The notes beneath the pieces are model-generated. The model was not told the DNA's origin. It did not search any database and worked only from the letters and a program-made list of their open reading frames with translations. From an uncultured Lentisphaeria bacterium (GTDB lineage: Bacteria > Verrucomicrobiota > Lentisphaeria > JABSQK01 > JAJFLO01): a stretch of 64,000 nt of DNA. Where the stretch lies: positions 960,108 to 1,024,107 of the forward strand of contig OX638337.1 in NCBI GenBank assembly GCA_951812855.1. The letters run 5' to 3'. Positions 3,688-38,995 of this stretch are shown here, piece by piece. The translations under genes and the position numbers were made by a program. Each line of letters starts with the position of its first letter. The stretch's first letter is position 1.

Positions 3688-5105
3688 TGAATATGACAAC
3701 GTGTCCTGGTGAAGAACTCAAATCAGCGGCTGACGCTATCGACAAAGAATTTGATTCTGTTCGTAATATCAACGATTCAGAACAGGATAGTTCACGCATC
3801 ATAATCCGGCGAATAAACGTCTCTATTCCGAAAACCAATTTACTTTCCTGGCTGGACAAACAAATAATCTATCCAAAAATTTACTGGTACAGTCGGAATA
3901 TCAATCACGAAATTGTATGTACGGGCAGTATTCACACTATTATTGGCGATCACCTGAAAAACTTAAAAGATGAATTCAATGACTCAGCATTATTATCGGA
4001 TGCGGATTGTCGATATTTTGGAGGATTATCCTTTCAATCACAAATCACATCACCCGATTGGAATTCTTTTTCAGCGTATCAATTTATTTTACCTCAGTTT
4101 GAATTAGTCAATAAAAATGATGATGAAACACGCTTTATCTGTAATTTAAAAATTGATCCGACGAAAAATCTAATTAAACAAAAATCAAAAATACTTGACG
4201 ATTTATCACGGCTGGATTTTGATGAGACCTCTCCTGATTCAAAACCGTTACATATTGAATCTCGCAGTAATCTCCCGGATCAAAAAAATTGGAATATTAA
4301 AATTGACAAAATTTTAAATGAAATAAGGACCGGAATATTCAAAAAACTGGTTTTAGCACGAGAATCGATCCTTAGGTGTCGGACGAACGTAAATGCCCTT
4401 TCACTACTGGCTAACGTTGGGGATCGTACTATGAATTCTTATCGATTTTATTTTCAACCCACCCCCGAATCCGAATTTTTTGGAATAAGCCCCGAACGAT
4501 TATTTTTTAGAGACAAAAATAAAATCAGTGTTGAAGCTGTTGCGGGAACAAGTCATCGGGGAAAAACAAAACATCAGGAGATTCAAACAGGAAGAGATCT
4601 ATTAAAATCAGAAAAGGCAAATCGGGAACACCGCTATGTTGTAAAAAATTTGAGACAGGTCCTTAACACACTTAATGCTAAAATCGAACACGAGACTCAA
4701 CCTGGAATCATGAAATTACATCAGCTTCAACATTTATTTCAGGAAATCACTGCATCTCTGCGGAATAACACTGACGATATCGATATTTTGACTGCATTGC
4801 ACCCAACCCCTGCGGTGGGTGGTTATCCAGGTGAAAACGCTTTATCCTATATTGAAAATATTGAAGGATTCGATCGCGGATGGTATGCAGGCCCAATTGG
4901 ATGGATTGGTAAAGAGCAAACTGAATTTGCAGTTGCCATTCGATCCGGATTATCAACGGGTAAAACATTGCATATTTACAATGGTGCCGGCATTGTTAAA
5001 GGATCTTCAGCACATGAGGAATGGGCAGAAATTGAAATGAAATTTTCGTCAGTAATAGGTTTATTGAACATTTTCATGCCAGAATTCACTGAAGAAAATC
5101 CATGA
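3687..5105 (+). CDS. menF: Isochorismate synthase (menaquinone-specific, MenF-like)
   Basis: 472-aa ORF; chorismate-binding C-terminal domain (…EAVAGTSHRGKT…, …ALHPTPAVGGYPG…, …GWYAGPIGW…); start codon overlaps ubiE stop (ATGA). Confidence 0.8.
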   Translation: MNMTTCPGEELKSAADAIDKEFDSVRNINDSEQDSSRIIIRRINVSIPKTNLLSWLDKQIIYPKIYWYSRNINHEIVCTGSIHTIIGDHLKNLKDEFNDSALLSDADCRYFGGLSFQSQITSPDWNSFSAYQFILPQFELVNKNDDETRFICNLKIDPTKNLIKQKSKILDDLSRLDFDETSPDSKPLHIESRSNLPDQKNWNIKIDKILNEIRTGIFKKLVLARESILRCRTNVNALSLLANVGDRTMNSYRFYFQPTPESEFFGISPERLFFRDKNKISVEAVAGTSHRGKTKHQEIQTGRDLLKSEKANREHRYVVKNLRQVLNTLNAKIEHETQPGIMKLHQLQHLFQEITASLRNNTDDIDILTALHPTPAVGGYPGENALSYIENIEGFDRGWYAGPIGWIGKEQTEFAVAIRSGLSTGKTLHIYNGAGIVKGSSAHEEWAEIEMKFSSVIGLLNIFMPEFTEENP

Positions 5106-5134
5106 GCAGAATTCTAATCTGATTAATTGCACTT

Positions 5135-7021
5135 ATGAATACCTCTGTTACACCCTACTTAAACAGTTTATGGGCCACCCTGATCGTTGAAGAGTCTGTA
5201 CGATTGGGTAATTGTAACGTGTGTATCTCACCCGGATCAAGAATCACTCCGCTGGCAGCAGCTGCAGCCTTACATCCTAAAATAGAGAGTACCGTTCATT
5301 ATGATGAGCGTGGCACAGCGTTTTTTGCCTTAGGACAGGCAAAAGGATCAGGAAAAGCCAGTATCCTGTTATCAACATCAGGCTCGGCCGTTGCTAATTT
5401 TATGCCTGCGGTTGTTGAGGCAGCTATGGATAGAGTTCCATTGATAATTCTTACCGCTGATCGCCCGCCGGAACTAAGAGACACCGGAGCAAACCAAACG
5501 ATTGATCAAGTTAAATTTTTCTCTAATTACGCCGTATGGCAATTCGACCTCCCCTGTCCGACACTCGATATCCCGCCGGATACACTGTTGAGTATCATTG
5601 ATCATGCCGTGTTTAAGAGCGAAAACATCAGAAAAGGTGTAGTGCATTTAAACTGTCTGTTTCGGGAACCATTTCTACCTGACAACCAGGACCTTACAGA
5701 AAATAAAAAATCATTCTCGTTTGACCAATTTTTGCATAAATCAAATTCTATGTTGAATAAGGAATTAGAAAACACGTCTTTTTCGGAAATCAACTCTCCT
5801 ATAGGAAAAGACTTGCTGTTACGATATACAGCATCAATCAATTCGTGGATAAAAACTGCTGCACCGAAAACAGATTATCGGAGGGCGGCAGGCTACTCAC
5901 CAAAATCCACGACCCAATCCGAGTCAATACTTGCATCTATCAGCAAATCAAAAAAAGGCTTGATAATATTGGGCAATATTTCATCAAAGATTAAATCTGA
6001 TATTTTAATGGAATTTTTGAAAAAACTAAACTGGCCGGTATTTGCAGATATCAATTCTGGAATTCGTCCAGGGTTTGATTCTGACATTGTAATACACTAT
6101 TATGATCAGCTGCTATACGATTCGTGCCAATTAGATTCATTTTCACCGGATTCAATTATTCAAATCGGACATCAAATCGTATCTAAAAGATTATTGAATT
6201 TTCTTCGTAATTGTCACCCCGAAGAATATGTACTCCTGACAGATTCTAATGACCGCATTGACCCTAACCACCGTATAACGCACCAAATCGTTACTGACAT
6301 TTCCGGATATTTGGATTTGATTTCAGCTGAAATAAAGCGTTCCCCAAAATCACCCGTTCTTAAATCAATGAGTAAAAAATCAGTCCTGATTGATCAATTT
6401 TTGATTGACGAATTTGATTTAAACAAACCGTTGACAGAGCCGGGAATCGCCAGACATCTATCAGAGTGTATACCCGCAGATACAGGTATGTTTATTGGAT
6501 CAAGCATGCCTATTCGCTATATGGATATGTTTGCTGCACGGGATGGCAATACCCCTGTTATAACATCTAATCGTGGAGCCAGCGGCATAGATGGTGCAAT
6601 CGCAACCGCTGCCGGATTTGCTAAGAATATTAATAAGCCCATGACTGTTTTAATCGGTGATTTAACCTTACTTCACGACATGAACTCTCTGCCCTTGATA
6701 AAATCACAATTACATCCATTTGTGATTATAGTTCTCAACAATGATGGTGGCGGTATATTTTCCCTGCTTCCTATTTCCCGGCATTTCAAAAACAAAAACC
6801 TGGAGCAGCATTTCTCAAGTACTCATGGACTGAAATTTGACAAAACAGCATCCATGTTTGGGTTTAATTATAGCTCGCCGCCATCACTGAAATCATTTAT
6901 TTCTGAATATTCTCTGGCAATAGAAAACACAACTCCGACTATTATTGAAATATCCAGTAACCGATCTAAAAATGCTGAATGTTTGGAGAACATAAAAATT
7001 CAGATTTTGAAGATTACTTGA
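5135..7021 (+). CDS. menD: 2-succinyl-5-enolpyruvyl-6-hydroxy-3-cyclohexene-1-carboxylate synthase (TPP-dependent)
   Basis: 628-aa ORF with TPP-enzyme N- and C-terminal domains (…ILLSTSGSAVANFMPAVVEAAMDRVPLIILTADRPPELR…, …NRGASGIDGAIATAAGFA…); 30 bp downstream of menF. Confidence 0.85.
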   Translation: MNTSVTPYLNSLWATLIVEESVRLGNCNVCISPGSRITPLAAAAALHPKIESTVHYDERGTAFFALGQAKGSGKASILLSTSGSAVANFMPAVVEAAMDRVPLIILTADRPPELRDTGANQTIDQVKFFSNYAVWQFDLPCPTLDIPPDTLLSIIDHAVFKSENIRKGVVHLNCLFREPFLPDNQDLTENKKSFSFDQFLHKSNSMLNKELENTSFSEINSPIGKDLLLRYTASINSWIKTAAPKTDYRRAAGYSPKSTTQSESILASISKSKKGLIILGNISSKIKSDILMEFLKKLNWPVFADINSGIRPGFDSDIVIHYYDQLLYDSCQLDSFSPDSIIQIGHQIVSKRLLNFLRNCHPEEYVLLTDSNDRIDPNHRITHQIVTDISGYLDLISAEIKRSPKSPVLKSMSKKSVLIDQFLIDEFDLNKPLTEPGIARHLSECIPADTGMFIGSSMPIRYMDMFAARDGNTPVITSNRGASGIDGAIATAAGFAKNINKPMTVLIGDLTLLHDMNSLPLIKSQLHPFVIIVLNNDGGGIFSLLPISRHFKNKNLEQHFSSTHGLKFDKTASMFGFNYSSPPSLKSFISEYSLAIENTTPTIIEISSNRSKNAECLENIKIQILKIT

Positions 7022-7543
7022 CCTTTCTTCTTAAAACCAGCCCGTTTTGAAAGAGAGTCCTCACTGTTAAATTATAGTAATAAAGGAGAACATATAGTGA
7101 AACGGAAATCCGCCCTTTGGTAATATGATCTTTTTGATTCGTTCTCCTTTAATAACATTCACGTAAAAAAACCGCGGTAATTCTGAGATTCATTCAAGCG
7201 TACAGCAGCAAATGGATTGCTTATTTTGGCACTTTTAAAAAAGTTCCTGAGCAAAGAGATGACCTGCTGATTTACCCGTGCCTGTACTGAAATAAACGAA
7301 AGATCGCCTTTGGACAGTTTTTTTTCAGCGAATCCAGAACAATAATTGTAAAAGCATCATTAACGGTTTCAGTTTCATGACAGGCTCATTACATTTGATA
7401 AATAAAAAGAGGCGTAACTTGAAGATTTTTTGAGTTATTATATTTTCATGATGAGTTTAACCGGCTTCCTGTTCTTCAAGGAAGGCAAAGGGAAAATAAG
7501 GCTTCTATGCAAAATGAAGAGAAGTCCAAACGGAAATGACTAA

Positions 7544-10500
7544 ATGCATGACGATTCCACAATAAACGATGGGATAATTCCCCTTACCAATCCTGATCAG
7601 GCAGAGCTTGATAAACATGCGATTATCGAAGCATCGGCGGGAACGGGGAAGACCTATACGATCGAACAGCTGGTTGTTCGACTGCTCATTGGAAACCCTG
7701 ATGTAAATCCTCCGGTTTTACCTATTCCTATTGACCGGATTCTGGTTGTCACATTTACCGAAAAAGCGACCGGCGAAATGAAAGACCGGATACGTAATAC
7801 TATCGAAGCAAAACTGAACAACGCAGCACGTTCTGATACCGAATGGTTCTATCTGCATGACGCACTGGAAAATTTTGATAATGCCCAGATATCAACGATA
7901 CATGGGTTCTGTCACCGAACATTGCGGGAACATGCCTTTGAAAATGGTCGCCAGTTTGAATATGATGTCGTTGATGATCGGGATATTTACCATACACTGT
8001 TACTCCGGCAAATGCGGGAAGATTGGCCAAAACACTATGGCCGCAATCTATGCACATACCTTCTATTGGCAGATTTTCCGCATCGAGTCCAAAATGAGAG
8101 TCAGTGGATAGACACAACGATTAAACTTGCACAAAACTTCAGACCCAATGCCGGAGATCAACTCTATCCTGAACCTGATGCAACCGTTTCACCAATGAAA
8201 ACTGTGTCGGAACTGAAACAATACCTGTCTGAATTAGTAATGGTGATTGGAGGATTTCCAATTAACTCTGTTACCGATCATCCATTTTATGGTGCGTATT
8301 CCAGATTGAACTTTAATGCCGGCAGCAAAAACCTCCGCCTTAAGAACGTTATTACACCATTATTAGAACTGTTAGACCATTTCAGGGAAAAGAAGAATGA
8401 CATTCTGGATTCCGGTACAGTCGCAGCAATGATCAGATTAATCCGGGATAATAAAAAAACATCAGCGTTTGCTGAGTCCGGTTTTGCCTGCCTTATGCCG
8501 AAAAAATGGAATAAGGACAAGAACAACCTGGATACAGAATGCCCGCATTTACAATCTATAATCAACCCTCTTGAACAGATCCGGGAATTGACAACATCCT
8601 TTGCCCCTCAATTCAGGAGTCAGGTTGTTAAACAACTGCAAACCGATGTCCGCCTGTATAAGGAACAGAAAGGTTTACTGACTTACAACGATATGATCTC
8701 CATGGTTGCAGCCGCGTTATCCGGAAACCATGGCACTGAAACCCCGCCTCCATTATTATCTGCGTTACGTGATCGCTACAAGATTGCATTAATCGATGAA
8801 TTTCAAGATACGGATATCTTACAATGGTCAATTCTGAAAACCGTTTTCGTGGATAAACATGATGACAGCCCACACCGTTTAATTGTTGTTGGAGATCCCA
8901 AACAGGCAATATATGGTTTTCGCGGTGCCGATTTGAATGCCTATTATTTAGCCCGAAATCAACTTGGTAAACTCGGAAAAACGAAAACCGGATGTTACTC
9001 ACTGGATACCAATTGGCGTTCAATTCCACAGTTAATAGATGCATTCAACGCTCTATTCAAACACGATAACTGGTTTCAACGTAATGACATCCGACATCAA
9101 CCGGCCAATACTCCGACACCCGGATCAGGACGGAATCGATTATATCGTGACAACACAGGTTCTTCAGTATTAATAACGCATAGCATTAACAGTGATAAAT
9201 CAGCGAAGGCGGCTCAGGCAGAGTGGTTTAAATTTATTGCAGCAGAAATTGATCGTTTACTGAATTCATCAACTGAAATGATGATGTTTGGTGATAAAAC
9301 CTCACCGCCTCGACCGCTTCGTGCAGATGATATTTGTATCCTTTGCCAAAATAAAACAGAAGCCGGACGAATAGAGAAAGAATTAAATAACACTCACATC
9401 CCCTATTCATTTTACAAAAAACCGGGGCTATATGAATCCGATGAAGCCTTGCAGCTGCTTTACTTATTAGAGGCAATTGCGTCGCCAAATGATACGGCTG
9501 CGTTTAAGAAACTGCTGATGACATGCTTTTTTGCAATTCCGGTATTAGATGTCAAAAATTATGAAAATCTGCCTTCGGATCATTGTATTAAACGGCTTTT
9601 CCTGAAGTGGGTCAGACATGCAGCAAATCGACAGTGGGCGATTATGTTTCATTCAATCAGAAACGAAACCCGCATTCTGCTAAACACAGGAAACGACCCC
9701 GATCATGAACGGCGATTAACAAATATTGAACAGATTATCCAAGAACTCCATAATCGTGCATTGACCGAAAATATGGATATTATTGACCTTGCCAATCTTC
9801 TTGGCAACCTTTATTATAATCATATCTCAATCTCTGAGGAAGACAATTTACATCGTCGAGACACAGAACATCCCGGGGTACAAATGACCACCATCCATAA
9901 GAGTAAAGGACTTGAGTTTCCTGTTGTTTTCATTGCCGGGGGAATGACAGCACCTCCGAATACAAATCAACCCTATTACAAGATTCATAATGGGGAACAT
10001 GTCATTTATGACCTGACATCCAAATCAAAATCACAATGGGAAAATGAACAGCATGAAGAACTGCAGCGGTTATACTATGTTGCATTAACCCGGGCAATAT
10101 ATAAGCTTTATATTCCTCATTATCGAAACGAAAAACAGCTGAATGCGTCAGGAGCAGTCGCCAAAATACTATATCCCGCCATTAATGCTGCTGCAGGCGA
10201 ACTTCCCGCCGCTCCTGTTATAACTGATCGAATTGATATATCAAACTCTGAGTGGAACGAGTCGAGGATGAAGGTAATACAACTCGATCCGGCAATAGAG
10301 TTACCGCGTAACGATTTCAATCTCAGAGACCGAAACAGGTCACAGAGTATCGATTCATATTCCGGGTTAAAAAACAAAATGCTGCCACATGCTCCAGCCA
10401 AATTCCAGAATATCTCAAATCAATTCGGATATGACCAGGCGGAAGAACCTGCAGCCGATGAAAGCAGTCAAACGACGCAAACCCGGACAATGAACATTGA

Positions 10501-11218
10501 AGCTGCCGATCCAATTCAAAAAACAGGTCTGCCGCCCGGTCGACTCACCGGGAATCTATTGCATAATGTATTCGAATCATTAGACTTTCAACTTGCCGGA
10601 TCCACGGCAGGTCCAAAGGAACTCTTACAAACCGGCACAGCTGAAGTCATTAAAAAATCGATGAATCACTATCAACTGCCGGCAGAACATGATGATCAAC
10701 TCAAAACAATCTATCACCATGAAATTTCGAAAATTATCTGGACAACATTAAATGTCGAACTTCCAGGCGGAATCAAACTTCGGGATATTTCAGAATGTGA
10801 CCGCAAACACGAACTGGAGTTTTTTTTTCCGTATCCTCAGTTAAGTAATACTGACATTCCCAATATCAATCGATGTGACGGCTTTGTAAAAGGTTATATC
10901 GATTTGATATTCCGCTGCCGGAATAAGTATTATATTCTTGATTGGAAATCGGATAGTCTCGATGATTATTCACCGGATCAACTGGAGCATCATATGTGCA
11001 GTAATTACTATGATCTGCAATATAAACTCTATACGATCGCAACAGATCGCTGGCTGCAGCAATATCATCAGACAAATCAATTAGCGGGCGTATTTTATCT
11101 ATTCCTCCGTGGCTTGAAAACAGGGACACATAGCGGGATTTTCCCGGTAATATTTAAAGATCAGGTTCCCCCGACTCAGGAATATGAAAACGAACTTGAT
11201 AAATTGATACAAACGTAA
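7544..11218 (+). CDS. recB: RecB-family helicase-nuclease (exodeoxyribonuclease V beta-like)
   Basis: 1224-aa ORF; N-terminal UvrD/Rep-type Walker A (IIEASAGTGKTYTIEQL), helicase motifs (…VVGDPKQAIYGFRGAD…), C-terminal PD-(D/E)xK nuclease motif (GYIDLIFRCRNKYYILDWKSD). Confidence 0.8.
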   Translation: MHDDSTINDGIIPLTNPDQAELDKHAIIEASAGTGKTYTIEQLVVRLLIGNPDVNPPVLPIPIDRILVVTFTEKATGEMKDRIRNTIEAKLNNAARSDTEWFYLHDALENFDNAQISTIHGFCHRTLREHAFENGRQFEYDVVDDRDIYHTLLLRQMREDWPKHYGRNLCTYLLLADFPHRVQNESQWIDTTIKLAQNFRPNAGDQLYPEPDATVSPMKTVSELKQYLSELVMVIGGFPINSVTDHPFYGAYSRLNFNAGSKNLRLKNVITPLLELLDHFREKKNDILDSGTVAAMIRLIRDNKKTSAFAESGFACLMPKKWNKDKNNLDTECPHLQSIINPLEQIRELTTSFAPQFRSQVVKQLQTDVRLYKEQKGLLTYNDMISMVAAALSGNHGTETPPPLLSALRDRYKIALIDEFQDTDILQWSILKTVFVDKHDDSPHRLIVVGDPKQAIYGFRGADLNAYYLARNQLGKLGKTKTGCYSLDTNWRSIPQLIDAFNALFKHDNWFQRNDIRHQPANTPTPGSGRNRLYRDNTGSSVLITHSINSDKSAKAAQAEWFKFIAAEIDRLLNSSTEMMMFGDKTSPPRPLRADDICILCQNKTEAGRIEKELNNTHIPYSFYKKPGLYESDEALQLLYLLEAIASPNDTAAFKKLLMTCFFAIPVLDVKNYENLPSDHCIKRLFLKWVRHAANRQWAIMFHSIRNETRILLNTGNDPDHERRLTNIEQIIQELHNRALTENMDIIDLANLLGNLYYNHISISEEDNLHRRDTEHPGVQMTTIHKSKGLEFPVVFIAGGMTAPPNTNQPYYKIHNGEHVIYDLTSKSKSQWENEQHEELQRLYYVALTRAIYKLYIPHYRNEKQLNASGAVAKILYPAINAAAGELPAAPVITDRIDISNSEWNESRMKVIQLDPAIELPRNDFNLRDRNRSQSIDSYSGLKNKMLPHAPAKFQNISNQFGYDQAEEPAADESSQTTQTRTMNIEAADPIQKTGLPPGRLTGNLLHNVFESLDFQLAGSTAGPKELLQTGTAEVIKKSMNHYQLPAEHDDQLKTIYHHEISKIIWTTLNVELPGGIKLRDISECDRKHELEFFFPYPQLSNTDIPNINRCDGFVKGYIDLIFRCRNKYYILDWKSDSLDDYSPDQLEHHMCSNYYDLQYKLYTIATDRWLQQYHQTNQLAGVFYLFLRGLKTGTHSGIFPVIFKDQVPPTQEYENELDKLIQT

Positions 11219-14046: not shown

Positions 14047-14212
14047 TATTATTTTGGGCATTCCCGACCCGGAATAAATCCTGGAATTAAATAACGCAGA
14101 AATTTGGCAATGTATCATTCCCGATATCGTGAATAACTGTGATTTACTTTAGTTTTAGAATCAGCATATCCTTTCTACTGACACATCGAATAGAAACAGC
14201 CAATATGCAATT

Positions 14213-14701
14213 ATGAGTACAACACATAATTTTCATTTTTCAGATTCACGTGATATTGGCACTGTTGACAATGATTCAATCGACCTGGCTGTTACCTCAC
14301 CACCCGACCCTGTGATGGAAATGTGGGATGACCTTTTTGTTACTCTTAATCCAGATATTAGCGATGTACTTTCAGATTTAAACGGCCGGTTAGCCTTTAG
14401 TAAAATGCATCATGAATTAGATAAAGTCTGGAGAGAATTGGATCGGGTCGTGAAACCAGGCGGATTTGTATGCATAAATATCGGTGACGCAACCTGAACA
14501 ATCGGTAATAATTTCAGCCTGTATTCCAACCATTCCAGCATCCTTATGTCAATGACATCACTCTCATTTTCGTTACTGCCGTTAATATTATGGAGAAAAT
14601 CGACAAATTCACCAACGAAATTTATGGGCTCGGGGCTGCTCCCGCCAGGGGCCTGTATAACACTTGAACATGGATACATATTAATCTTCAGAAAAAATTA
14701 A
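14213..14701 (+). pseudogene. DNA (N4/N6-adenine/cytosine) methyltransferase remnant with in-frame TGA and missing C-terminal SAM-binding region
   Basis: Frame continues through TGA at 14495-14497: …SIDLAVTSPPDP…VVKPGGFVCINIGDAT(TGA)TIGNNFSLYSNHSS…FMGSGLLPPGACITLEHGYILIFRKN(TAA); resembles N-terminal half of PF01555-type MTases (DPPY-like motif degraded to SPPD); no downstream FxGSG motif found. Confidence 0.5.
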
Positions 14702-15364
14702 AATATAATAGCCGGCACCATTGTTTTCCTGTTATGACACGACAGGGGCAGGAGATACTCATTAAGTACATTGAAACGATTCAGATCAGTGATAACGGCA
14801 GAATTAATGTGGACTACACACCATTTGAATTAAATAATAAGTATGCGGAAACAGAAGAATCAGTTAAACACAAATCACAAATTTTAGAGAACCGGCAATT
14901 ATCATTATTCCAGATCTATTCTCGGAGAATCTCAATAATTATTAATAAGCAGGTGTCGTCATATGTTCTGGGTCGTCGTTGCAGTATTTGGATGTATCTT
15001 TTTTATCGTAATTAATGCGTTCGTGTTTAATCCGCCGGAATCATTGCTCAAGTCTATACTTGAATGGAAAGAAAAATCAGTAGATGATGATCCTGGAACT
15101 GAAGACAGTAAAGAATAAAGTAAACAATACGTGATCTAAGAATCAAAACTTAAAACGGTAACACAGATTGATATGCCTCATGAACTCATTTTCAATCAAT
15201 CACATAAAAACCGAAATCAATGGTCGATATTTTATGAAACGATCTCTTCGGTGGACTTAAAAATTGATAATCGTAACAGGACAGTGTAAAATTAAATCTG
15301 ATAACTATTGAAAATCCGCTTTTTCAGAACAGGCTCCCGTTAAATCCTAATAATATAAAAAATT

Positions 15365-17006: not shown

Positions 17007-17105
17007 TTATATTTGGACTACTTTTGCTTTTGTTGATTTCTTAAAAAAATTCGCTTCCTGTTGATTTTATAATACGTTACAATTATTCAGGAATGTATTG
17101 GAATT

Positions 17106-17135
17106 TTAATTGCTGTAGTTTTAATTGCTGTAGTT
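17106..17135. repeat. Perfect tandem duplication of 15-mer TTAATTGCTGTAGTT
   Basis: Seen directly in sequence (two adjacent identical copies). Confidence 0.7.
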
Positions 17136-17500
17136 AGAAAAAAGCGTGCATGTCGATTGCAGCGTCTGACAGTGAGGGATATCTGGTGGTACGCATAGTC
17201 AGAACACAGGTCGGAGAGGTTTCTGAGTAACTTCCATCACCGCTGAAGGCATGGTCTGAAGAACAATAGACTGTCCTGGCGTCTCTGGGCAATGCTTCTA
17301 TTAATGAATGGCTCAATACTGTCAACATTAATTTTATGTGTATGAATGTACTTGCTCCCATTTACAAGACTAAAATTAAATCATTGGTTAGGTCATGGTA
17401 TACAAACAATAATCAGCAATTATTAAAATATAGAAAACGGGTAATAAATTCTATAACCCAAGACTGCTGACGGTGGTTAAAAATGCAGGATATTATTTTA

Positions 17501-17607: not shown

Positions 17608-18516
17608 TTGAACAATGCAGTTCAAACGTCAACTGACCCAATATCAAAATGGGATTTTCGATTAAATATGTTACCTGTTAAATCTAAAAATTTACTTTTT
17701 ACTTTATTCACTCTATTCTCTCTATTCACTCTTCATCATTCACTTTTTGCTGAAGAGGATGATTATCAAATCGGCGGAAAAGATGTTCTCGAAGTTATAG
17801 TGTATGACGAACCGGATTTATCAAAAGAAGCGATTAGGGTATCTCTGGACGGTTATGTAAATTTCCCATTAATTGGAAAAGTTAATGTAAAAGGGTTGAC
17901 GTCCAGCCAAATTGAGGAAAAACTACAAAACCTGCTTGCTGACGGTTACATTCTTAGTCCACAAGTCTCTGTACTGGTAATGGAATACGGTAGCAGAAAG
18001 GTATTTGTTTTAGGTGCTGCAAAAAATACCGGAAGTTATGAACTTAGAGGAAAGACAACGTTATTAGAAATGATTTCAAAGGCAGGGGGCGTCGGTAAAA
18101 AAGCGGGAGATCACTTTCTTGTCCTTCGTGAAACTGAGCGTGGACCTGAGTCCATCCCGATTAACCGCAAAAAATTAATTGATGAAGGTGATTTATCACT
18201 AAATGTTATCTTAAAGAATAATGATACCGTTTATATACCCATTGCCGATGCAATTTACGTACTGGGCGAAGTTAAACGTCCTGGGACTTATGAACTTAGC
18301 GGCAATAATCGGACGGTGCTCTCTGCTATTACCCACGCTAGTGGCTTTACAAAAATAGCAGCTCCCGAAAAAACAAAAATAATTCGCGTCAACAATAAGG
18401 GTGTACAAGAAACGATCATTGTCGATCTTGAAGATGTTATGAAACGAGGTCAAAAATCCAAAGATATCAAACTCAAACCTGAAGATGTCATCATCGTTCC
18501 TCAAGGAATTTTTTAA
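17608..18516 (+). CDS. Polysaccharide export outer-membrane protein (Wza-like, short form)
   Basis: 302-aa ORF with hydrophobic N-terminus (likely start MLPVK at ~17668); polysaccharide-export/SLBB motifs (…YQIGGKDVLEVIVYDEPDLS…, …YVLGEVKRPGTYEL…). Confidence 0.8.
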   Translation: MNNAVQTSTDPISKWDFRLNMLPVKSKNLLFTLFTLFSLFTLHHSLFAEEDDYQIGGKDVLEVIVYDEPDLSKEAIRVSLDGYVNFPLIGKVNVKGLTSSQIEEKLQNLLADGYILSPQVSVLVMEYGSRKVFVLGAAKNTGSYELRGKTTLLEMISKAGGVGKKAGDHFLVLRETERGPESIPINRKKLIDEGDLSLNVILKNNDTVYIPIADAIYVLGEVKRPGTYELSGNNRTVLSAITHASGFTKIAAPEKTKIIRVNNKGVQETIIVDLEDVMKRGQKSKDIKLKPEDVIIVPQGIF

Positions 18517-18859: not shown

Positions 18860-21142
18860 ATGAGTGTAATACATCAAGAAAATTTAGAGACCTTTGAACA
18901 GAAAAAAGATATTGATCTTAAAGAATACCTCTCTGTTATCCGCAAACGCAGATGGGTTGTTTTTTTTATATCCCTGATTATAATAGTCAGTATTACGACA
19001 CACACTTTCAAAGTTCGCCCTGAATATCGGGCAGTAGTTCGCCTTCTTATAGACAAAGAGAATCCAAATATTGTTTCATTTGATGAAGTGTTGTCACTGG
19101 ACGGCAGAAGTGCTGAATATTATCAGACTCAGTTCAAGATTATTACAAGCCGAGGTGTTATTGAAAAAGTTATAACGCAATTAGATCTTGAAAAGGAATT
19201 TGATGAATTACAGGAAAGAGAGAAAGAAACTAAATCTCTCTCCAATATCCTGTCTGCACTTTCTGAGTCAGTAATTCAATTATTAACATCTATATTCAAA
19301 AAAGACCAAGACCAGTCAATTGTAGTTGACAAAACTGTTCCTTCTAGAATTGATAACCCTGCCCTTAGAAAGGAAGAATTACTCTTTCGCGAAATTATCG
19401 AACCATTAACAGTAACCCCCATAATGAACAGTCGCTTAGTTGATTTAGAATATACCGGGTACGATCCTCAAAGAATTACTGAAATTGTTAATGCAATTGC
19501 ACGGGTGTATATAGAGCAAAATTTAGAAAACAGGCTGTATGCCTCTGAAGACGCAGCTGTTTGGCTTGATGAACGATTAACTTCAATGCAGGGAAGAGTT
19601 GAAAATTCAGAACGAGCTCTACAAATTTATAGCAAAAATGCGGGAGTAACATCAATTGAAGATAAGCAGAAAACTCTGGATCAGGAATTATCAGAATTCA
19701 ATGCCGAGTTGATCAAGACTACGAAAAAAAGGGTCAAACTGGAGCAAAAATACAAAAACTCTCAGAATCCGGACCTGTCCAATTCTATTTTAGAAATTAT
19801 TAATAATGCCCTTATCCAAAATCTCAACAAGGACTTGTCTGTTTTAAGAGCCAAACAATCTGAACTGGAGGGAAAATACGGAACAAAGCATCCCAAAATG
19901 ATTCAGGTTGTTTTGAAAATAAATCAGATTAAAGAAATCATTGCCATTGAAGTAAAAAAAATACATGACAGCATTCAGAATAGATACCAGCTGGCTTTAA
20001 TCGAAGAACAATCATTAAAAGACAGATTACAAAAATTACGGGATGAATCTGAATTTCTTAATGAAAAATCAATTCGTTATGGAGTTCTCAAAAGAGAAGC
20101 GGTCAGCAACCGGCAAATGTATGAATTGTTACTAAAACGCTTAAAAGAAACGGATTTGTCCCAAGGATTACGTACAAATAATATCCGTATTATTGACAAA
20201 GCAAAACCCCCTTTAGAGCCGTTTAAACCAAATAAAAAACAAAATATACTGATCGGTATCATCTTTGGATTAATAAGTGGGCTCGGTTTGGCATTCTTGA
20301 TTGAATATTTAGACAATACCGTTAAGGAACCTGATGAAATAGCAATCAGATTCAACATTCCGTTTTTAGGATTGGTCGGCAATGACATAAACTCTGACAA
20401 GAAAACCTCAGTGGCAAATCCAGGTCTAACCTCAAAAATTAAACTAATTGCTTATAGAGATCCCGAATCAAATATTTCTGAAAGTCTGCGAACCATACGC
20501 ACTAATGTGATTTTTTCAGCTGATGGTGATAAGGATAAAGTATTTATGGTTACATCATCATTGCCTAAAGAAGGAAAAACAACAGTCGCGTCAAATCTTG
20601 CCGTTGTTATGGCATCACTTGGAGAAAGAGTACTGATTATTGATGCCGACCTTAGACGACCTTCCATTCATAAAGAATTAAATTGTATGAAATCACCCGG
20701 GCTATCATCCTATCTGATTCGTCAAAAAGAAATTGATGAAATTATAATAGATACTCAAATAAATAATTTATCAGTTGTTCCCAGCGGGCTTACACCTCCA
20801 AATCCTTCCGAATTGCTCAGTCATCCCCAAATGAAAGCACTATTAGACTATGCAAGGGAACATTACGATCGAGTTATTCTCGACACACCACCAGTTGCAT
20901 CTGTAACTGATCCTATTGTTATTAGTAGACAGGCTCACGCGGTTCTCTTTGTTATTCGTTTTGGTTTAGCACCCAGAGATGCAATATCTAAATCTATTCA
21001 ACAACTAAAACTGGTCAAAGCAAATATTATGGGTGCAGTGTTGAATGGTGTCGATTTCAGCAAGGATTCTTATTATTATCAGTATTATTATAAGCATTAC
21101 TACCATAAAGAAACTGATGGTGAAAAAGCAACCCCTTCCTGA
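18860..21142 (+). CDS. Wzc-like polysaccharide co-polymerase / BY-kinase (tyrosine autokinase)
   Basis: 760-aa ORF; N-terminal Wzz-type chain-length domain with TM segments, C-terminal P-loop ATPase (…VTSSLPKEGKTTVASNLA…, …LIIDADLRRP…), C-terminal tyrosine cluster DSYYYQYYYKHYYH. Confidence 0.85.
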   Translation: MSVIHQENLETFEQKKDIDLKEYLSVIRKRRWVVFFISLIIIVSITTHTFKVRPEYRAVVRLLIDKENPNIVSFDEVLSLDGRSAEYYQTQFKIITSRGVIEKVITQLDLEKEFDELQEREKETKSLSNILSALSESVIQLLTSIFKKDQDQSIVVDKTVPSRIDNPALRKEELLFREIIEPLTVTPIMNSRLVDLEYTGYDPQRITEIVNAIARVYIEQNLENRLYASEDAAVWLDERLTSMQGRVENSERALQIYSKNAGVTSIEDKQKTLDQELSEFNAELIKTTKKRVKLEQKYKNSQNPDLSNSILEIINNALIQNLNKDLSVLRAKQSELEGKYGTKHPKMIQVVLKINQIKEIIAIEVKKIHDSIQNRYQLALIEEQSLKDRLQKLRDESEFLNEKSIRYGVLKREAVSNRQMYELLLKRLKETDLSQGLRTNNIRIIDKAKPPLEPFKPNKKQNILIGIIFGLISGLGLAFLIEYLDNTVKEPDEIAIRFNIPFLGLVGNDINSDKKTSVANPGLTSKIKLIAYRDPESNISESLRTIRTNVIFSADGDKDKVFMVTSSLPKEGKTTVASNLAVVMASLGERVLIIDADLRRPSIHKELNCMKSPGLSSYLIRQKEIDEIIIDTQINNLSVVPSGLTPPNPSELLSHPQMKALLDYAREHYDRVILDTPPVASVTDPIVISRQAHAVLFVIRFGLAPRDAISKSIQQLKLVKANIMGAVLNGVDFSKDSYYYQYYYKHYYHKETDGEKATPS

Positions 21143-21500
21143 CTTTGACCTGCCGGGACTGCAGCTCAAGTGCTGTCCATTAAATAACTGATCTGTCATA
21201 AAATCCATCACCGAGACTTTGGCTTTGTAACTTTGTTACCCAATCCCTCAGTACAGTATAGTTGATAAATGTCCTTGTGATTGACCGCCCATGTCCGACA
21301 AATGCTTACTTGAAATATTACTCGAAGAAAATAAACCAAATCACACCTCTATTTCAGCCGCTATCCGCGATGGGATCCAGCCGAGATTAAAGCCGCACGC
21401 CCATCTCTCGATACATTCACCCCGCCCTCCTGGCAAACTGAAAAGGCAATCCTTCTGAACATTTATTCTCAACTGACGGGTGTTGTGCCGATGACAGGCA

Positions 21501-21674
21501 AGTTATAAAAACGATCTGGATTATCAACCAATATGCAGCGCTGCCCAAAGAAGGCATCCTTGGCGGTCGCACGCATCACTTGGCACACGAGTTCACTAAA
21601 ACAGGGCACCAAGTCTATGTCGTCGGTGCAAGGTGGCATCATCATCTGACAGACCGCAGCCATGCCGAGACTTA
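21501..21674 (+). pseudogene. 5' fragment of a GT4-type glycosyltransferase gene (no start codon, stop after ~57 codons) within GC-rich island
   Basis: Frame translates …VIKTIWIINQYAALPKEGILGGRTHHLAHEFTKTGHQVYVVGARWHHHLTDRSHAET(TAA); resembles conserved N-termini of GT4 glycosyltransferases (MKIxxINQYxxxPxxG…GHxVxVV…SHL); ATA where ATG expected. Confidence 0.4.
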
Positions 21675-21919
21675 ATTCTTTGTACTTGGCATTAGCGGCC
21701 GTTTGTGCTTCGTCGGCATCGGTATATTAATGTCGGAGGCTAAATACCCCCTCGGCAGTGCCCGCCCCGTCGGCCCAGTCGATTTTTGCCGCAACCGCTC
21801 GGGTCCCCCTCCAGGTCCGACACCAGGAGAAGTGAAATTACAGAAAGAAAGTTACACTCCCTGGAAAGAAGTCATTTATTTGTAAAGAATATTAAATGAA
21901 ACTGTGTACGTTTTAATTA

Positions 21920-23548
21920 TTAGCATAATGCCTTATCAACAATGTCCTGTGCTTCGTTTAACAATTGTTTTAAGTGATCATCACCAATAAAACTTTCTGC
22001 ATAAATCTTGTAAACATCCTCGGTACCGGAAGGTCGTGCCGCAAACCAGCCGTTTTCAGTGGCGACTTTAACTCCGCCGATCGGCACAGCATTGCCGGGA
22101 GCATTACTTAGTTTTTGGAGAATTTTTTCACCTGCTAATGTGTTTGCTGTTATTTGGTTCGGGGAAAGATTTTTTAGCCTGTTTTTCTGTTCAGAATTAG
22201 CTGCTGCGTCGATCCGCCGATAGACCGGATCACCAAATTTCTCTGTAAGTTCTTTATAATGTTCACCGGGGTCCTTTCCTGTTTTGGCCATAATTTCGGC
22301 TGCGAGTAAATCGAGAATAATTCCATCCTTGTCTGTTGTCCATGCGGTACCGTCAAATCGGAGGAACGATGCCCCGGCGCTTTCCTCCCCGCCAAATCCA
22401 TAGGTCCCTGTCCGGAGACCCTGGACAAACCATTTAAAGCCGACGGGTACCTCTAATAACCTCTGACCGAATGAATCGGCGACCCGGTCAATCATGCTGC
22501 TGCTGACCAGGGTCTTTCCGATTGCTGCATCAGGCTTCCATCCCGGACGATTTGTGAAAAGGTAATGAATGGCTGCTGCGAGATAGTGATTCGGATTCAT
22601 CAAACCGACACTCTTAGTCACGATTCCATGGCGATCGCTGTCAGGATCGTTGCCAAAGGCAATATCATAATTTTCTTTCATAGCAATCAGCCCGGCCATA
22701 GCGTAGGGAGAGGAACAGTCCATCCGAATTTTTCCGTCTTTGTCAACCGTCATAAATTTGAATGTTGGATCGATATCTTTGTTGACGATATCAATATTAA
22801 GACCATATCGGTCTGCGATAGGCTGCCAATACTGCAGTGATGCACCCCCCATGGGATCAACCCCTATATTTAATCCTGCGGATTTAATTGCATCCATGTC
22901 GATGACATTCTCGAGGTCGTTTACAAACGGTTTAATATAGTCGTGGGCATGGGTAGAATCCGCAGTTAAGGCCTGTTCTAAAGATAATTTACGGACATCA
23001 TGATTTGAATTATTCATCAACGAGTTTGCCCGATCTTCAATCCATCCGGTGATTGTGGTATTTGCCGGGCCGCCATCGGGTGGGTTGTATTTAAATCCAC
23101 CATCTTCAGGAGGATTATGAGATGGTGTAATAACGATACCATCCGCATCTGCTTTCTTCGCTGATTTATTATGTGTTAAAATCGCATGTGAAACAACTGG
23201 AGTTGGTGTATACCCATTATCCTTTTGTATATACACATCGACGGTGTTGGCAGCCAGCACCTCTATTGCTGTATTGAATGCCGGGGTTGAAAGTGCGTGT
23301 GTATCTTTTCCGATGTACAGCGGACCTTTAATTGCATTGGTATCGCGGTAGTCACAAATTGCCTGAGTGATCGCCTGAATATGACGTTCATTAAAACTGC
23401 CTGCATTCGACGATCCGCGATGACCCGAGGTACCAAAGGCAACAGGTTGAAGACGATCCACCTTTTCATAATAAGTATCTACTAAATGTGCGATGTCAGC
23501 GATCAATTCAGTGGGAACCGGTTTTCCGGCTAAAGGATGTAATGACAT
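21920..23548 (-). CDS. pgm: Phosphoglucomutase (alpha-D-glucose phosphate-specific)
   Basis: 542-aa ORF; phosphoserine-loop motif …[10 protein letters not shown]…, metal-binding …GVDPMGGAS…, sugar-binding …[10 protein letters not shown]…. Confidence 0.9.
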
Positions 23549-24121
23549 GGATTTTGTCTCCTGTAACGTTATTCAATGATGACTACAGTCAGGTATTGTA
23601 ATACTTGAAACAGATCTTCAGGTTCCGGGATGAGAAAATCAAACATGAATGTATACCGATTATTATTTAAATCCATTGTGTCTGTATCACAATGTTTTTA
23701 CGTACTTTCCGAGTAAAAAACCAGCATAAAATTCAGGTTAAAATGCTATAAAGTAAAATTAATGGTACCATATTTTATGAGGTGTAAAGGATACGGTGCG
23801 GGATATCCGAAATAAATCTGTATTGATAATAAGGCGTTACTGTCATGATACGGAGCTATCCCTCAAATGGCGATTTTACGTTTTTCATAATTGACAAGAA
23901 GTTGCGGTCTAAATTTCGTTTCATTTTCGAGATAATGCAGTTCCGTAATCACTCTTGTAGAACGGAATTCTTCTGGTTTACTTAAACATTCGAGAAAATG
24001 AACAGCACTGCCCCATTGTGCAACATGTTGAGGCTCTGCTGAAAGTGACACATTTTCATCCCATTTTATATCCAGCGAATAGCTGACACAGGTTGATTTC
24101 GAAATTGTTATAAGTTCTGCT

Positions 24122-24487
24122 AATACTGGTATATATAAACGAATCCCTGCCCTGGCCAACGCTGCCGGGTTCACCTTCAGCACAATGCCACGGCTTAAAT
24201 ACCTAAAAAAGAAATGCACAGTGAGGTCGCCCAGGCATTACCATAGACGATGACGTACCACTAATATGGCAGAAAACATCAATAAACAATTAAAGGAACG
24301 AACACGCATCGCATCACTTTTCCCAAACGAAGCATCACTGCTCAGATTGGCAAGTGCCATTTTGATCAAAATCAGCGACCGGCGGACGCTGGAAAACGTA
24401 CCTGAAAATGGATCATCAATGACCTGCGATTATCAAACTGCAGAAAAAAATTTGCATTACCGCCATTTTTTAATAATTGTGTACTAA
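24122..24487 (+). mobile_element. IS256 (Mutator)-family transposase 3' remnant with in-frame TGA
   Basis: Frame translates …SPRHYHRR(TGA)RTTNMAENINKQLKERTRIASLFPNEASLLRLASAILIKISD…, matching the conserved C-terminal block of IS256-family transposases (…TTNxIExxNxxLRxxxKxxxxFPNExSxxRLxxAxL…); N-terminal/catalytic part not found; 5' boundary approximate. Confidence 0.5.
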
Positions 24488-24603
24488 TTTTGCTGTTTAT
24501 AAGTGATTTACTCATGTTTGTGTGTAGTGTAAAAGCTTTCGTTTTATACACAATAAATATTTGATAATGAACAATGCGTGAGTTATATGAGGAGAACGAC
24601 TAA

Positions 24604-26079
<1,476 letters not shown>

Positions 26080-34329: not shown

Positions 34330-35409
34330 TTAAAAATCGAGTAGTTCAACATCGAAGATTAACGTTGCTTTTGGGGGAATACGTGGCGGGGCTCCCCGTT
34401 CACCATAGGCAAGGCGGTGGGGAATTATTAATATGCGTTGTTCTCCCTTTTTCATATCTAAAAATGCTTCGTCCCATCCTTTGATGACACGACCAGCTCC
34501 AACATTGAATTCAAATGGTAAATTTCGATCTCGTGAACTGTCAAATGTTTTTCCATTGGCAAGAGTGCCGGTGTAGTGGGCTTTTACTTTTGTTCCTCTT
34601 TTGGGTTTATTACCTGAGCCTTCTTTTAATATAACATATCGTAATCCGGATGCAGTTTTGATTTGGTTCGGCCATTTTTTATTGATAATTGCATTGTCCT
34701 TTTCCTGTACCGCTTTTTCTTTCTCCGCCTGTTGATTTTTAGCCTTCTTCAGTCGGTTCTTAAAAGTATCATTGTCTGATTTAAACTTGTTTGCATCGTC
34801 ACCTACTCTGACAATGGTAATCGAATTTATCTTATCTTTATTCTGAATTTTATTAACGATATCCTGACCGTTTATTACTTCCCCAAAGACTGAATGTTTG
34901 TTGTCTAACCAGGGAGTTGCCTTGTGAGTGATAAAAAATTGACTGCCATTTGTATCCTGTCCGGAATTTGCCATAGACAGTATTCCCGGGCCGCTATGTC
35001 TAAGAGTTGGGTCAAACTCGTCAGAAAATTTATAACCGGGACCTCCAGTACCTCTGCTGAGTGGACAACCGCCCTGAATCATAAAATCGGGAATGACCCG
35101 ATGAAAGACTAATCCGTCATAAAACTTGGTTCCCTTTGGTTTATTCGATTCAATCGTACCCTCAGCTAATCCGATAAAATTCATGACTGTCAGTGGAACT
35201 TTGTCATAGTGTAACTTCAGCAGGATTGTTCCTTTTGAAGTATTGATCTTTGCATAGATTCCGTCACTGAGTTTTTTTGAAGACGATTCTCCAGCATAAG
35301 AAAGGAAGTTTATGGTTATTATTAGAATTAAGAGCTGAATAATATTTCTTAAATTATAACGGCATAGGATCATCTTTATTCCATCCTGTTTTGTCTGTTG
35401 CTTTTTCAA
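34330..35409 (-). CDS. Secreted dual-family peptidyl-prolyl cis-trans isomerase (cyclophilin domain fused to FKBP domain)
   Basis: 359-aa ORF; N-terminal signal/TM segment; cyclophilin motifs (…[15 protein letters not shown]…, …[18 protein letters not shown]…), C-terminal FKBP domain (…[14 protein letters not shown]…[29 protein letters not shown]…[10 protein letters not shown]). Confidence 0.8.
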
Positions 35410-36690: not shown

Positions 36691-37449
36691 TTGAATCTGA
36701 ATCGTATGAAAAATTGGTACAAAGACGCCTTTACTGAAGATTATATTCATATTTATCAACACCGCAACCAAACAGAAGCGACAATTCTAATCGACCGGTT
36801 ATTGAAATTTTTGAATTTACCAGGCGATTCATTGTGTTTAGATTTATGCTGTGGATTTGGTCGTCATTTATCATATTTATTAGATCAGGGGATAAATACA
36901 TATGGATTAGATTTATCACAGCCACTACTGGAAAATGCGGTTGAAATAAGGCAATTATCCGGTCGTGTCATTCTTGGAGATATGAGACACATTCCCTTTA
37001 GTAAGTCATTTGATTTTGTTTTCTCCTTTTTCTCCAGTTTTGGTTATTTTCACAGGGATTCAGAAAATATACAAGTTTTACAGGAGATTAATCGAGTGTT
37101 AAAACCAAAGGGAAGATTCTTAATCGATTATCTTAATGCTGAGCATGTTAAAGATAATTTGAGAGAACATGACCTTCGTTGCTATGATAATTTTACTGTA
37201 AAGCAGAAGCGCTGGATAAATTCAGATTTAAATACGGTAGAAAAAGAGTTAATCATTGAAGATGTCAAGGGTGAACGATCTTATTTTGAGAGTGTTAAAC
37301 TCTATGATCTGGTAGATTTCAGGCAACTTTGTTCAGCCTCGAATTTGAAAATCACCCATGAATTTGGAGATGCCATTGGAAAACCGTTTGACATCGGATC
37401 AAGTCGTTTGATCATGGTGGGGGGAAAAATTGACAGTCACCTTTCATAA
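36691..37449 (+). CDS. Class I SAM-dependent methyltransferase (translationally coupled to bshC)
   Basis: 252-aa ORF; SAM-binding motif …LDLCCGFGRHLSYLL…GLDLS…; stop overlaps bshC start by 20 nt. Confidence 0.75.
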   Translation: MNLNRMKNWYKDAFTEDYIHIYQHRNQTEATILIDRLLKFLNLPGDSLCLDLCCGFGRHLSYLLDQGINTYGLDLSQPLLENAVEIRQLSGRVILGDMRHIPFSKSFDFVFSFFSSFGYFHRDSENIQVLQEINRVLKPKGRFLIDYLNAEHVKDNLREHDLRCYDNFTVKQKRWINSDLNTVEKELIIEDVKGERSYFESVKLYDLVDFRQLCSASNLKITHEFGDAIGKPFDIGSSRLIMVGGKIDSHLS

Positions 37450-38995
37450 TTTCAATTTGGTAGATGATAACCTTTATAATGCCAAAATAACGTCCGCTTT
37501 TCTGGAAACAGATCCTTATTCATCAGATTCATTGTCCAGGAATCATCAATACGCGTCATCACGGTCTGACATCGACCGCGAATTTTTGTCGGAGACTTTT
37601 TCTGAATATAATAATGTCATCGGTAATGACTCCACGGCACTTTATAATTGCAGTCGAATAAGAAATGCAGGTTCAATGGCAGTGGTTACAGGCCAGCAGG
37701 CCGGGATGCTGACCGGTCCATTATACACGATATATAAGATTATTACGGCTGTTAATTTTGCAAAGCATTGTGAACATAAGTTTAAGACACCTGTCATCCC
37801 GGTTTTTTGGAACGCAACCGAAGATCATGATTTAAGTGAAGTCGAATCATTTCATTATCCTGGCAAGAAGTGGTCTGCCACTTTTTCACAAAACGGAGTT
37901 GCAGCACAATTTTTAAACGTAAATCCGGCATGTTCGAATCTTGTTTACAATTTCCTGGATTCAATCTCAGAAATAAATCATAAAGATGAAATTACATCTA
38001 TACTGACAAATGAGTTTGAAAAATACGGAGAATTTTCATCGTCAGTGACAGCCCGGTTATTTAAGGGGACGGGTCTGGTCATTATTGAACCAAAATTATT
38101 GCGTAAAAAGTCAACTCCATTTTTTCAAAAGTGCATCAGCCATTGTCATGATATCAGAAATGGATTGGAGCAGGCCGGTGTTCTCTTACAGCAAAATAAA
38201 ATTAAGCCTGCATTTCAGGTGTCCGGGGATTCAACAGGACTTTTTTATATAACAGATGACGGGATTCGATATCAAATAAAAAATAGGAAAAATGACTTTT
38301 TTATTAATAACAAATGGGTTTCGGAATCTTCAGCGTTACAACTTATTGCCGAGTCTTCTTCAAATTTTTCTACCGGTGCATACCTGAGACCCGTTTTGCA
38401 GTCAAAAATTATTCCTGCTCTGGCATATATAGCAGGTCCAGCGGAATATAGGTATCATTTACAACTGAAAAATATATTTCACATGTTTGATGTTAAAATG
38501 CCTGTAATTCTACCCAGAAATCATGCAACCATTTTGACAAAAAAAGAATTGAAAGTTGCGAATAAACTGGGTTTGAAAATTCATGATTATTTTGAAGGTC
38601 CTCAAAAATTTTATCATCAGCACAAGTTATATAAAAAAGGAAGAGACAGTTTTAAGAATGCTGAACAGGCCTTGATAGACATCGCTGAGAATTTGGCTCA
38701 GGACATACCGGATTTAGTCAATGAGAATGTATTAAATCAGTTTAAATCAAACTTGGGTATTCAATTAGACAAACTTGAAAAACGCGTTGCGAAAGAAGTC
38801 TTGAGACGCGAGGGAATTGACAATGCCAGAATTGATCGGTTTTATAATTGTATTTTCCCGAAAAAATCTATGCAGGAACGATGGATTAATATCTTTTATT
38901 TTATTGAACAAAATGGTTTATCCATTATCAGTGATTTGTTGAAAATTATCGATCCTTTAGAACGGCGACATTATGTTGTTTATACAGACCATTAG
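37430..38995 (+). CDS. bshC: Bacillithiol biosynthesis cysteine-adding enzyme BshC
   Basis: 521-aa ORF; conserved BshC block …AVVTGQQAGMLTGPLYTIYKIITAVNFAK…PVIPVFWNATEDHDL… and …AYIAGPAEYRY…; followed by bshB and bshA. Confidence 0.8.
   Translation: MTVTFHNFNLVDDNLYNAKITSAFLETDPYSSDSLSRNHQYASSRSDIDREFLSETFSEYNNVIGNDSTALYNCSRIRNAGSMAVVTGQQAGMLTGPLYTIYKIITAVNFAKHCEHKFKTPVIPVFWNATEDHDLSEVESFHYPGKKWSATFSQNGVAAQFLNVNPACSNLVYNFLDSISEINHKDEITSILTNEFEKYGEFSSSVTARLFKGTGLVIIEPKLLRKKSTPFFQKCISHCHDIRNGLEQAGVLLQQNKIKPAFQVSGDSTGLFYITDDGIRYQIKNRKNDFFINNKWVSESSALQLIAESSSNFSTGAYLRPVLQSKIIPALAYIAGPAEYRYHLQLKNIFHMFDVKMPVILPRNHATILTKKELKVANKLGLKIHDYFEGPQKFYHQHKLYKKGRDSFKNAEQALIDIAENLAQDIPDLVNENVLNQFKSNLGIQLDKLEKRVAKEVLRREGIDNARIDRFYNCIFPKKSMQERWINIFYFIEQNGLSIISDLLKIIDPLERRHYVVYTDH

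Follow-up and report, generated by a model that had tools for sequence, protein, structure and literature searches.

A GC-rich spacer between wzc and pgm that is probably a relic of a horizontally acquired polysaccharide-biosynthesis operon

Exopolysaccharide (EPS) loci of the exosortase (EpsH/PEP-CTERM)-associated kind carry wza and wzc as a pair, and the same pair is found in four loci that encode relatives of the Wzc protein considered here (L087, L088, L103, and L104), where it is accompanied by a BBP2_2 porin and/or the exosortase EpsH. In L104, the order of genes is an EpsH/EpsI exosortase, a BBP2_2 porin, wza, wzc, and then biosynthesis genes. A second group of relevant genes encodes the WbuB-like family 4 glycosyltransferases (GT4s) of O-antigen and capsule clusters, whose intact members are clustered with genes for a flippase, Wzy, Bac_transf, and further glycosyltransferases. 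The 64-kb stretch of DNA that was analyzed in full, here called the window, also has a wza-wzc pair, but neither the BBP2_2 porin nor the exosortase was found in it, and unlike in L104-type loci, wzc is followed only by what appears to be a foreign relic. That relic resembles gene remnants known from small or reducing bacterial genomes in its atypical composition, its two-sided truncation, its lost start codon, its position in a long spacer, and the presence of an IS256/Mutator transposase relic nearby. Compared to the usual pseudogene debris, it is distinctive only in that an operon junction survives and that the lineage of its one close homologue is represented in the same metagenome.

The features on which the analysis turns are the following, with strand given where a feature has one.

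17608-18516, plus strand: wza, outer-membrane polysaccharide export (Pfam Poly_export, 4e-22; SLBB/SLBB_2)
18860-21142, plus strand: wzc, polysaccharide co-polymerase and tyrosine autokinase (Pfam Wzz, GNVR, AAA_31)
21143-21370: left block of the spacer, 42% GC
21371-21675, plus strand: transferase segment, 51% GC
21371-21508, plus strand: GT-A remnant of an upstream GT4 gene, last ~45 codons and stop TAA at 21506-21508
21505-21675, plus strand: GT-B stub of a WbuB-like GT4 gene, ATA at the start position, 56 codons, then TAA at 21673-21675
21676-21830: right block of the spacer, 59% GC, with a subpart at 21727-21830 of 64% GC
21831-21919: 3' flank of pgm, adjoining the pgm stop, 27% GC, AT rich and native looking
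21920-23548, minus strand: pgm, phosphoglucomutase (Pfam PGM_PMM I-IV), convergent with wzc

Wza (Poly_export and SLBB) and Wzc (Wzz, GNVR, and P-loop kinase) are both present, intact, and encoded by adjacent genes, which form the native flank of the spacer. The wza gene has a GC content of 37.5%, a GC content at third codon positions (GC3) of 0.29, and a translation ~85% identical to that of wza in L086; wzc, which has the orientation of the relics, has a GC content of 35.7% and a GC3 of 0.29. A Pfam scan of the large open reading frames (ORFs) revealed no linked flippase, polymerase, priming transferase, or sugar-nucleotide gene in the 64 kb, and to that extent the view taken in a preliminary description, that the polysaccharide-export locus consists of only wza and wzc, was borne out. 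Except for a few large ORFs that lacked a match or lay outside the scan, everything else was housekeeping and included secDF, men genes, recB/recD, ilvC, aspS, bshCBA, lpt/kds genes, lpxK, and glyA. Only one other GT4 gene is present in the window, the bshA-like member of a bshC-bshB-bshA group.

Other observations concern the organism and its window. The lpt, kds, lpxK, recBD, and men genes, together with the Wzc relatives, indicate an uncultured Gram-negative lineage; a scan of GTDB genomes with pgm gave a best identity of 67%, with matches in scattered phyla, no synteny, and no close genome. The bsh group (37430-40916, plus strand) encodes BshC (Rossmann-like_BshC), a BshB-like PIG-L deacetylase, and the BshA-like GT4, and suggests bacillithiol synthesis. 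A low-molecular-weight phosphotyrosine phosphatase (LMWPc, 2e-31) encoded at 59419-59901 on the minus strand, 38 kb off, is a possible Wzb-type partner of Wzc. Next to it, at 57697-59415 on the minus strand, a 572-aa ORF combines a LacAB_rpiB ribose-5-phosphate isomerase domain (residues 14 to 153) with a full serine hydroxymethyltransferase (residues 164 to 540), and a single ORF at 34330-35409, also on the minus strand, joins cyclophilin-type and FKBP-type peptidyl-prolyl isomerase domains. Finally, a 248-aa ORF at 55166-55912 on the plus strand matches Pfam D123 (PF07065, 3.6e-22), a family mainly described from eukaryotic cell-cycle proteins.

The spacer between wzc and pgm spans 777 bp (21143-21919), is bounded by the stop codons of wzc on the plus strand and pgm on the minus strand, and had been judged by eye to be markedly GC rich. 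Its GC content is 47.4%, compared to 38.3% for the whole 64-kb window, and at the 777-bp scale it is the stretch richest in GC across the window: 777-bp windows vary with a standard deviation of 3.0%, and the 0.57% of them that reach 47.4% all overlap the spacer region. Noncoding DNA was chosen as the baseline, and the spacer is a GC outlier because it lies above all 20 of the other spacers longer than 100 bp (pooled GC, 35.2%; maximum, 41.4%). The windowed calculation therefore agreed with the visual impression. GC content is uneven within the spacer, ranging from 27% to 64% from segment to segment. At its far end the GC-rich tract continues into pgm, which at 45% GC is the highest among 46 ORFs, and the tract therefore appears even longer by eye than it is in the spacer. 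We conclude that the spacer is a GC-rich island of patchy composition.

The preliminary description had recognized in the island the first ~57 residues of a GT4-type transferase with ATA in place of the start codon. An exhaustive phmmer search of 1.84e9 representative proteins with the stub as the query returned 29 hits, the best of which was a 407-aa protein, P0001 (E value of 8.4e-22; 81% identity between query residues 1 to 54 and P0001 residues 2 to 55), and the second best of which was 63% identical. In a tblastn search, residues 1 to 56 of P0001 matched 21505-21672 with 80.4% identity, such that the ATA at 21505-21507 lies opposite Met1. P0001 is intact and carries Pfam Glyco_trans_4_4 and Glycos_transf_1, other full-length hits carry either Glyco_trans_4_4 or Glyco_transf_4 plus Glycos_transf_1, and for several relatives of P0001 the source gives the name "glycosyltransferase WbuB" or "family 4." When a profile built from 135 members of the family was run against all six frames of the whole window, the stub scored 58.6 bits at 21508-21684 (HMM positions 3 to 60), and a distant match was obtained to the bshA-like gene at 39.8 to 40.9 kb. 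Searches of Pfam, NCBIfam, PDB sequences, and a word-indexed protein database with the 56-aa stub gave nothing relevant; short relics escape standard libraries, and the family of the stub was found only by the exhaustive HMMER scan.

The stub shares the motif region KTIWIINQYA...GGR.HHLA..F...GH.V with the WbuB-like GT4s of O-antigen and capsule clusters but has none of the C-terminal Rossmann domain and little of the N-terminal one. Neither tblastn nor the profile detected any part of the family beyond residues 1 to 56 anywhere in the window, such that ~14% of the protein is encoded and ~350 downstream codons are lost. The two-domain GT-B architecture of ~400 aa is absent, Pfam shows no glycosyltransferase domain at this position, and there is neither a usable start codon, as ATA stands opposite Met1, nor an intact frame, as TAA occupies codon 57. 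The identification of a GT4 fragment with ATA at its start thus held up, and the stop codon, placed at 21672-21674 in the preliminary description, is corrected to 21673-21675. The stop may be just a deletion breakpoint rather than a separate nonsense mutation, because neither the family profile nor P0001 independently matches anything past the TAA. Some pairwise alignments extended GT-B past the stop to 21726, and that extension was supported by neither the profile nor P0001. We conclude that GT-B, as judged from its reading frame, is a pseudogene fragment that would be unable to act as an enzyme.

Immediately upstream of GT-B is a remnant that the preliminary description did not include. The interval 21371-21475 encodes WDPAEIKAARPSLDTFTPPSWQTEKAILLNIYSQL in a forward frame other than that of GT-B, and WDPAEIKAARPSLDTFTPPSWQTEKAILLNIYSQL aligns with residues 342 to 376 of the product of a 379-aa GT4 gene in L090 with 54% identity (E value of 1.45e-8 against the whole 64-kb window; single hit). 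The comparison cluster, L090/L091, comes from Mesorhizobium sp. Z1-4, and its transferase P0030 is 55% identical to P0001. The matched GT4 gene of L090 is the immediate upstream neighbor of the WbuB-like gene within a Wzx/Wzy-type, O-antigen/capsule-type cluster, and the gene order and overlap are the same as in the island. Moreover, the stop codon of GT-A overlaps the ATA of GT-B by 4 nt (TTA TAA / ATA AAA ACG ATC TGG), and at the L090 junction (TCG TGA / GTG AAA ACA ATA TGG) the overlap is GTGA and the residues K-T-I-W come next, as they do here. Assuming an ATGA junction in the ancestor, one G-to-A change at 21507 would have given ATAA and would have produced both the ATA at the start of GT-B and the change of the upstream stop from TGA to TAA. 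The GT-A match depends on a single homologue (L090/L091), and no second example was found among 11 metagenome loci or in a plasmid collection. A scan of JGI metagenomes with the stub recovered only relatives with ≤55% identity, the upstream genes of which were uninformative, and plasmid searches by protein and by DNA gave no match. We conclude that the island retains the junction of two neighboring, probably translationally coupled transferase genes, and that GT-A, which at 21371-21505 encodes the C-terminal 35 to 45 residues of its product, is a second gene remnant, with both genes cut on the outer sides of the operon junction.

Codon usage was compared by a synonymous-codon log-likelihood ratio (LLR) of host genes versus those of a 47%-GC organism (L084/L085), a measure that is independent of amino acid content. 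Host genes (n = 36) had an LLR of -0.096 ± 0.030 per codon, and the maximum among 2000 random 100-codon chunks of host genes was +0.08. The LLR per codon was +0.09 for GT-A and +0.17 for GT-B; genes of the 47%-GC organism gave +0.05 to +0.15 in 15 of 16 cases and -0.01 in the remaining one. Likewise, GC3 was 0.51 in the GT-A remnant and 0.56 in the GT-B stub, compared to a host mean of 0.33 ± 0.04. Because LLR and GC3 are outside the host range, the remnants are compositionally foreign. The pgm gene, considered as a further part of the foreign block, had a GC3 of 0.405 and an LLR of -0.053, which is inside the host range, and its high GC content comes mostly from codon positions 1 and 2; pgm is native and lies outside the block. 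We conclude that the nonhost synonymous codon usage and GC3 of both remnants point to horizontal acquisition, which had earlier been called probable and which the codon-composition check upheld.

The transferase genes account for 305 of the 777 bp (~40%), and the GC-rich flank blocks, 21143-21370 and 21676-21830, for 383 bp. The left block had no Pfam or NCBIfam match in any frame, the right block had no Pfam match in six frames and no Rfam match, and neither block matched L084, L085, L090, the loci of the Wzc relatives, or plasmids. A continuation of GT-A upstream of 21371 with a frameshift was considered and rejected, as a custom frameshift-tolerant alignment scored below the mean of shuffles. 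A minus-strand glycosyltransferase relic at 21140-21487 was rejected as well: BLAST gave weak, mutually consistent matches of family residues ~97 to 198 to that interval (E values of 0.002 to 0.02), and the family profile reached only -3.5 bits, a score equaled by 9 of 100 shuffles. The blocks are most likely further debris joined by deletions; to assign them to the same cluster would be guesswork, because they match nothing.

Loci encoding relatives of Wzc were compared downstream of wzc, where homology of the wzc region to the relatives stops at ~21117-21147. The homologues are 70, 61, 51, and 46% identical to the Wzc of the window.

L086, Wzc 70%: wzc followed by a convergent unknown gene; contig ends 1.5 kb on
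L087, Wzc 61%: contig ends 0.5 kb past wzc
L088, Wzc 51%: wzc followed by DUF6788, CorA, MscS, and ABC transporter genes
L103, Wzc 51%: wzc followed by epimerase/dehydratase, RmlA-type, and RmlC-type genes
L104 and L105, Wzc 46%, same Wzc protein in both: sugar-nucleotide and modification genes after wzc, spanning ≥10 kb

Biosynthesis genes thus stand straight after wzc in three of six relatives (L103, L104, and L105), and the three closest (70, 61, and 51%) have no transferase genes after wzc, within contigs two of which end within 1.5 kb. The island did not resemble any of the genes that follow wzc in the relatives, L103 to L105 included. Outside wza-wzc, the comparison of L103 to L105 with the window gave only one unrelated match, and nothing in the window was matched in a tblastx search with the regions of L087 and L088 that carry BBP2_2. 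In L086 (GCA_021772675.1; 38.6% GC), positions 1343-8015 of a 9.5-kb contig carry two wzc genes (products of 752 and 757 aa), between which lie wza and a small ORF, in that order. For the proposal that the island is the stub of a once larger polysaccharide cluster, the comparisons are mixed: the junction of two GT4 genes is colinear with the Wzx/Wzy-type cluster of Mesorhizobium and L103 to L105 have biosynthesis genes after wzc, but the three closest Wzc relatives do not support a full cluster at this site.

One way in which the island could be other than a relic is if it has a present function as a small ORF, a regulatory RNA, or a terminator or 3' untranslated region of wzc or pgm. The island is unchanged in two strains, it contains ORFs of 55 to 64 aa, and ATA is listed among the rare initiators of translation table 11. 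The sequence is secure, being identical on three overlapping contigs and in the second strain, L089 (circular, 1.94 Mb), and it occurs once in the window. Over 22.3 kb, however, 54 sites distinguish L089 from the window, and the identity of the island is what this divergence of 0.25% predicts; the absence of single-nucleotide differences from the island is uninformative because only ~2 were expected. The small ORFs lack family matches, and nothing in the island is conserved in the Wzc relatives. There was no Rfam hit with an E value of ≤1 in 20900-22200 and none at the gathering score across the window, no tRNA and no terminator-like site was found in the island, and predicted folding was no more stable than that of shuffled sequences (z-scores of +0.26 and +0.44 on the two strands). 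Promoter-like sites were not in excess, with 4 found and 2.0 expected from shuffles. An RNA gene had been named as the finding that would speak against a relic, and neither a covariance-model match nor a stable fold was detected. We conclude that a present function is highly improbable.

A relic could instead be native, the remains of an ancestral, vertically inherited exosortase/Wza-Wzc EPS locus from which the transferases were deleted in place during genome reduction. We consider this unlikely, even though wzc immediately precedes the remnants and shares their strand, rml-type genes (L103) or, behind EpsH/EpsI-BBP2_2-wza-wzc, ≥10 kb of polysaccharide genes (L104) come after wzc in distant Wzc relatives, and a window without the porin and exosortase found beside wza-wzc elsewhere fits a stripped-down locus. 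A GC3 of 0.51 to 0.56 and a codon usage outside all 36 host genes and all 2000 host chunks argue otherwise, and native origin is further disfavored because inactivated DNA of native descent would be expected, in an AT-rich genome, to have no more GC than the host, not 13 points more. Moreover, the island lacks homology to the genes that follow wzc in L103 to L105, and the closest relatives lack such genes. Quite unlikely, too, is the capture of a few hundred foreign base pairs spanning the junction, for example as filler in double-strand-break repair or by illegitimate recombination following DNA uptake, at a site where there was never a cluster. Flanks of 42% and 59 to 64% GC match neither host spacers (35%) nor the transferase segment in composition and look like several pieces, and it would be a coincidence for transferase DNA to land beside, and co-oriented with, export genes. 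What such a capture would account for is that the assignable DNA is one contiguous 305-bp segment, that nothing of the kind follows wzc in the closest relatives, and that traces of mobility are missing: no direct or inverted repeats of ≥14 bp occur in 20900-24700, and the island has no transposase domain in any frame, no integrase, and no mobile-element ends. A larger acquired insert that was trimmed by several deletions seems somewhat the likelier history than the capture of a single short fragment, because the relics are co-oriented with wzc and the composition of the island is patchy.

We conclude that the island is probably a nonfunctional, patchwork relic of a horizontally acquired polysaccharide-biosynthesis operon. 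The operon would have been acquired downstream of the native wza-wzc pair and in the same orientation. The foreign insert would have been larger at first and would then have been whittled down by deletions, which may have stripped GT-A of everything upstream and GT-B of its ~350 downstream codons. The product would be a relic with no present function beyond spacing two convergent genes.

The sole close homologue of the stub among ~15 billion proteins is the 81%-identical one from a lineage of ~47% GC. The 90% cluster of P0001 has three members: P0001, on a 2.04-Mb contig; P0149, which differs from it by two residues, on a 1.98-Mb contig; and P0148, a 170-aa C-terminal fragment encoded on 47%-GC contigs of the same metagenome as the window (ERZ18545485). 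There, L084 (ena:ERZ18545485:ptg000164l) carries at 10001-10513 only the C-terminal 166 residues of the transferase, 99.4% identical to P0001, with a GC content of 53% and a GC3 of 0.54, like the stub. Transposase debris of the DUF772, IS481, IS1595, and Mutator kinds lies around the fragment, and the transferase gene thus appears to be undergoing loss in the 47%-GC organism as well. The stub and the L084 fragment are not halves of one split gene, as the L084 fragment is a different copy in a 47%-GC genome. No DNA similarity was found between the window and the 47%-GC contigs (L084), nor was there similarity between the Mutator relic of the window and that of L084. The stub is no recent copy of that organism's gene because 81% protein identity is too diverged. 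Composition and the 81%-identical protein are the basis on which we infer that the donor was a bacterium of ~47 to 53% GC related to one in the same community, and the tie of the stub to the co-occurring 47%-GC organism is suggestive only. Both organisms have contigs of ~2 Mb with insertion sequence or transposase debris. That the relic is a fossil of an exchange of surface-polysaccharide genes between co-resident, perhaps host-associated, partners, followed by parallel loss in both, is a tentative idea that we regard as doubtful.

Debris of other kinds was seen in the window. A relic of the C terminus of an IS256/Mutator transposase (PF00872, E value of 4.7e-5, positions 338 to 373 of 379) lies at 24266-24487 on the plus strand, in a 1-kb spacer between pgm and ilvC. 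Upstream of wza, a 490-bp segment (17007-17496) is missing in the sister strain L089, which otherwise has 99.75% identity to the window. The segment is flanked by an imperfect direct repeat (AATAGCACAAAACACTGT and AATAGTGCAAAACACTGT) and has a 150-bp core of ~50% GC (17150-17299) without any match; the segment could represent a further small relic of foreign DNA or reflect a repeat-mediated deletion. Spacers of more than 100 bp number 21 in the window and total ~11 kb (17%), and one of 1.3 kb (14047-15364) contains short ORFs only, without family hits. The spacer content suggests further unrecognized pseudogene debris in this ~1.95-Mb genome.

The relic is an ordinary horizontally acquired pseudogene, a further instance of a well-known kind, and its significance beyond annotation is small. 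For annotation, the spacer should be entered as two glycosyltransferase pseudogene fragments rather than left blank or filled with small ORFs, and wza-wzc should be flagged as an export pair without linked biosynthesis genes in the 64-kb window. For the organism, the relic is a small marker of the past acquisition, and later loss, of surface-polysaccharide genes, and in a comparison of whole genomes it could be of help in tracing how the genome was reduced or what was exchanged with a co-resident organism.
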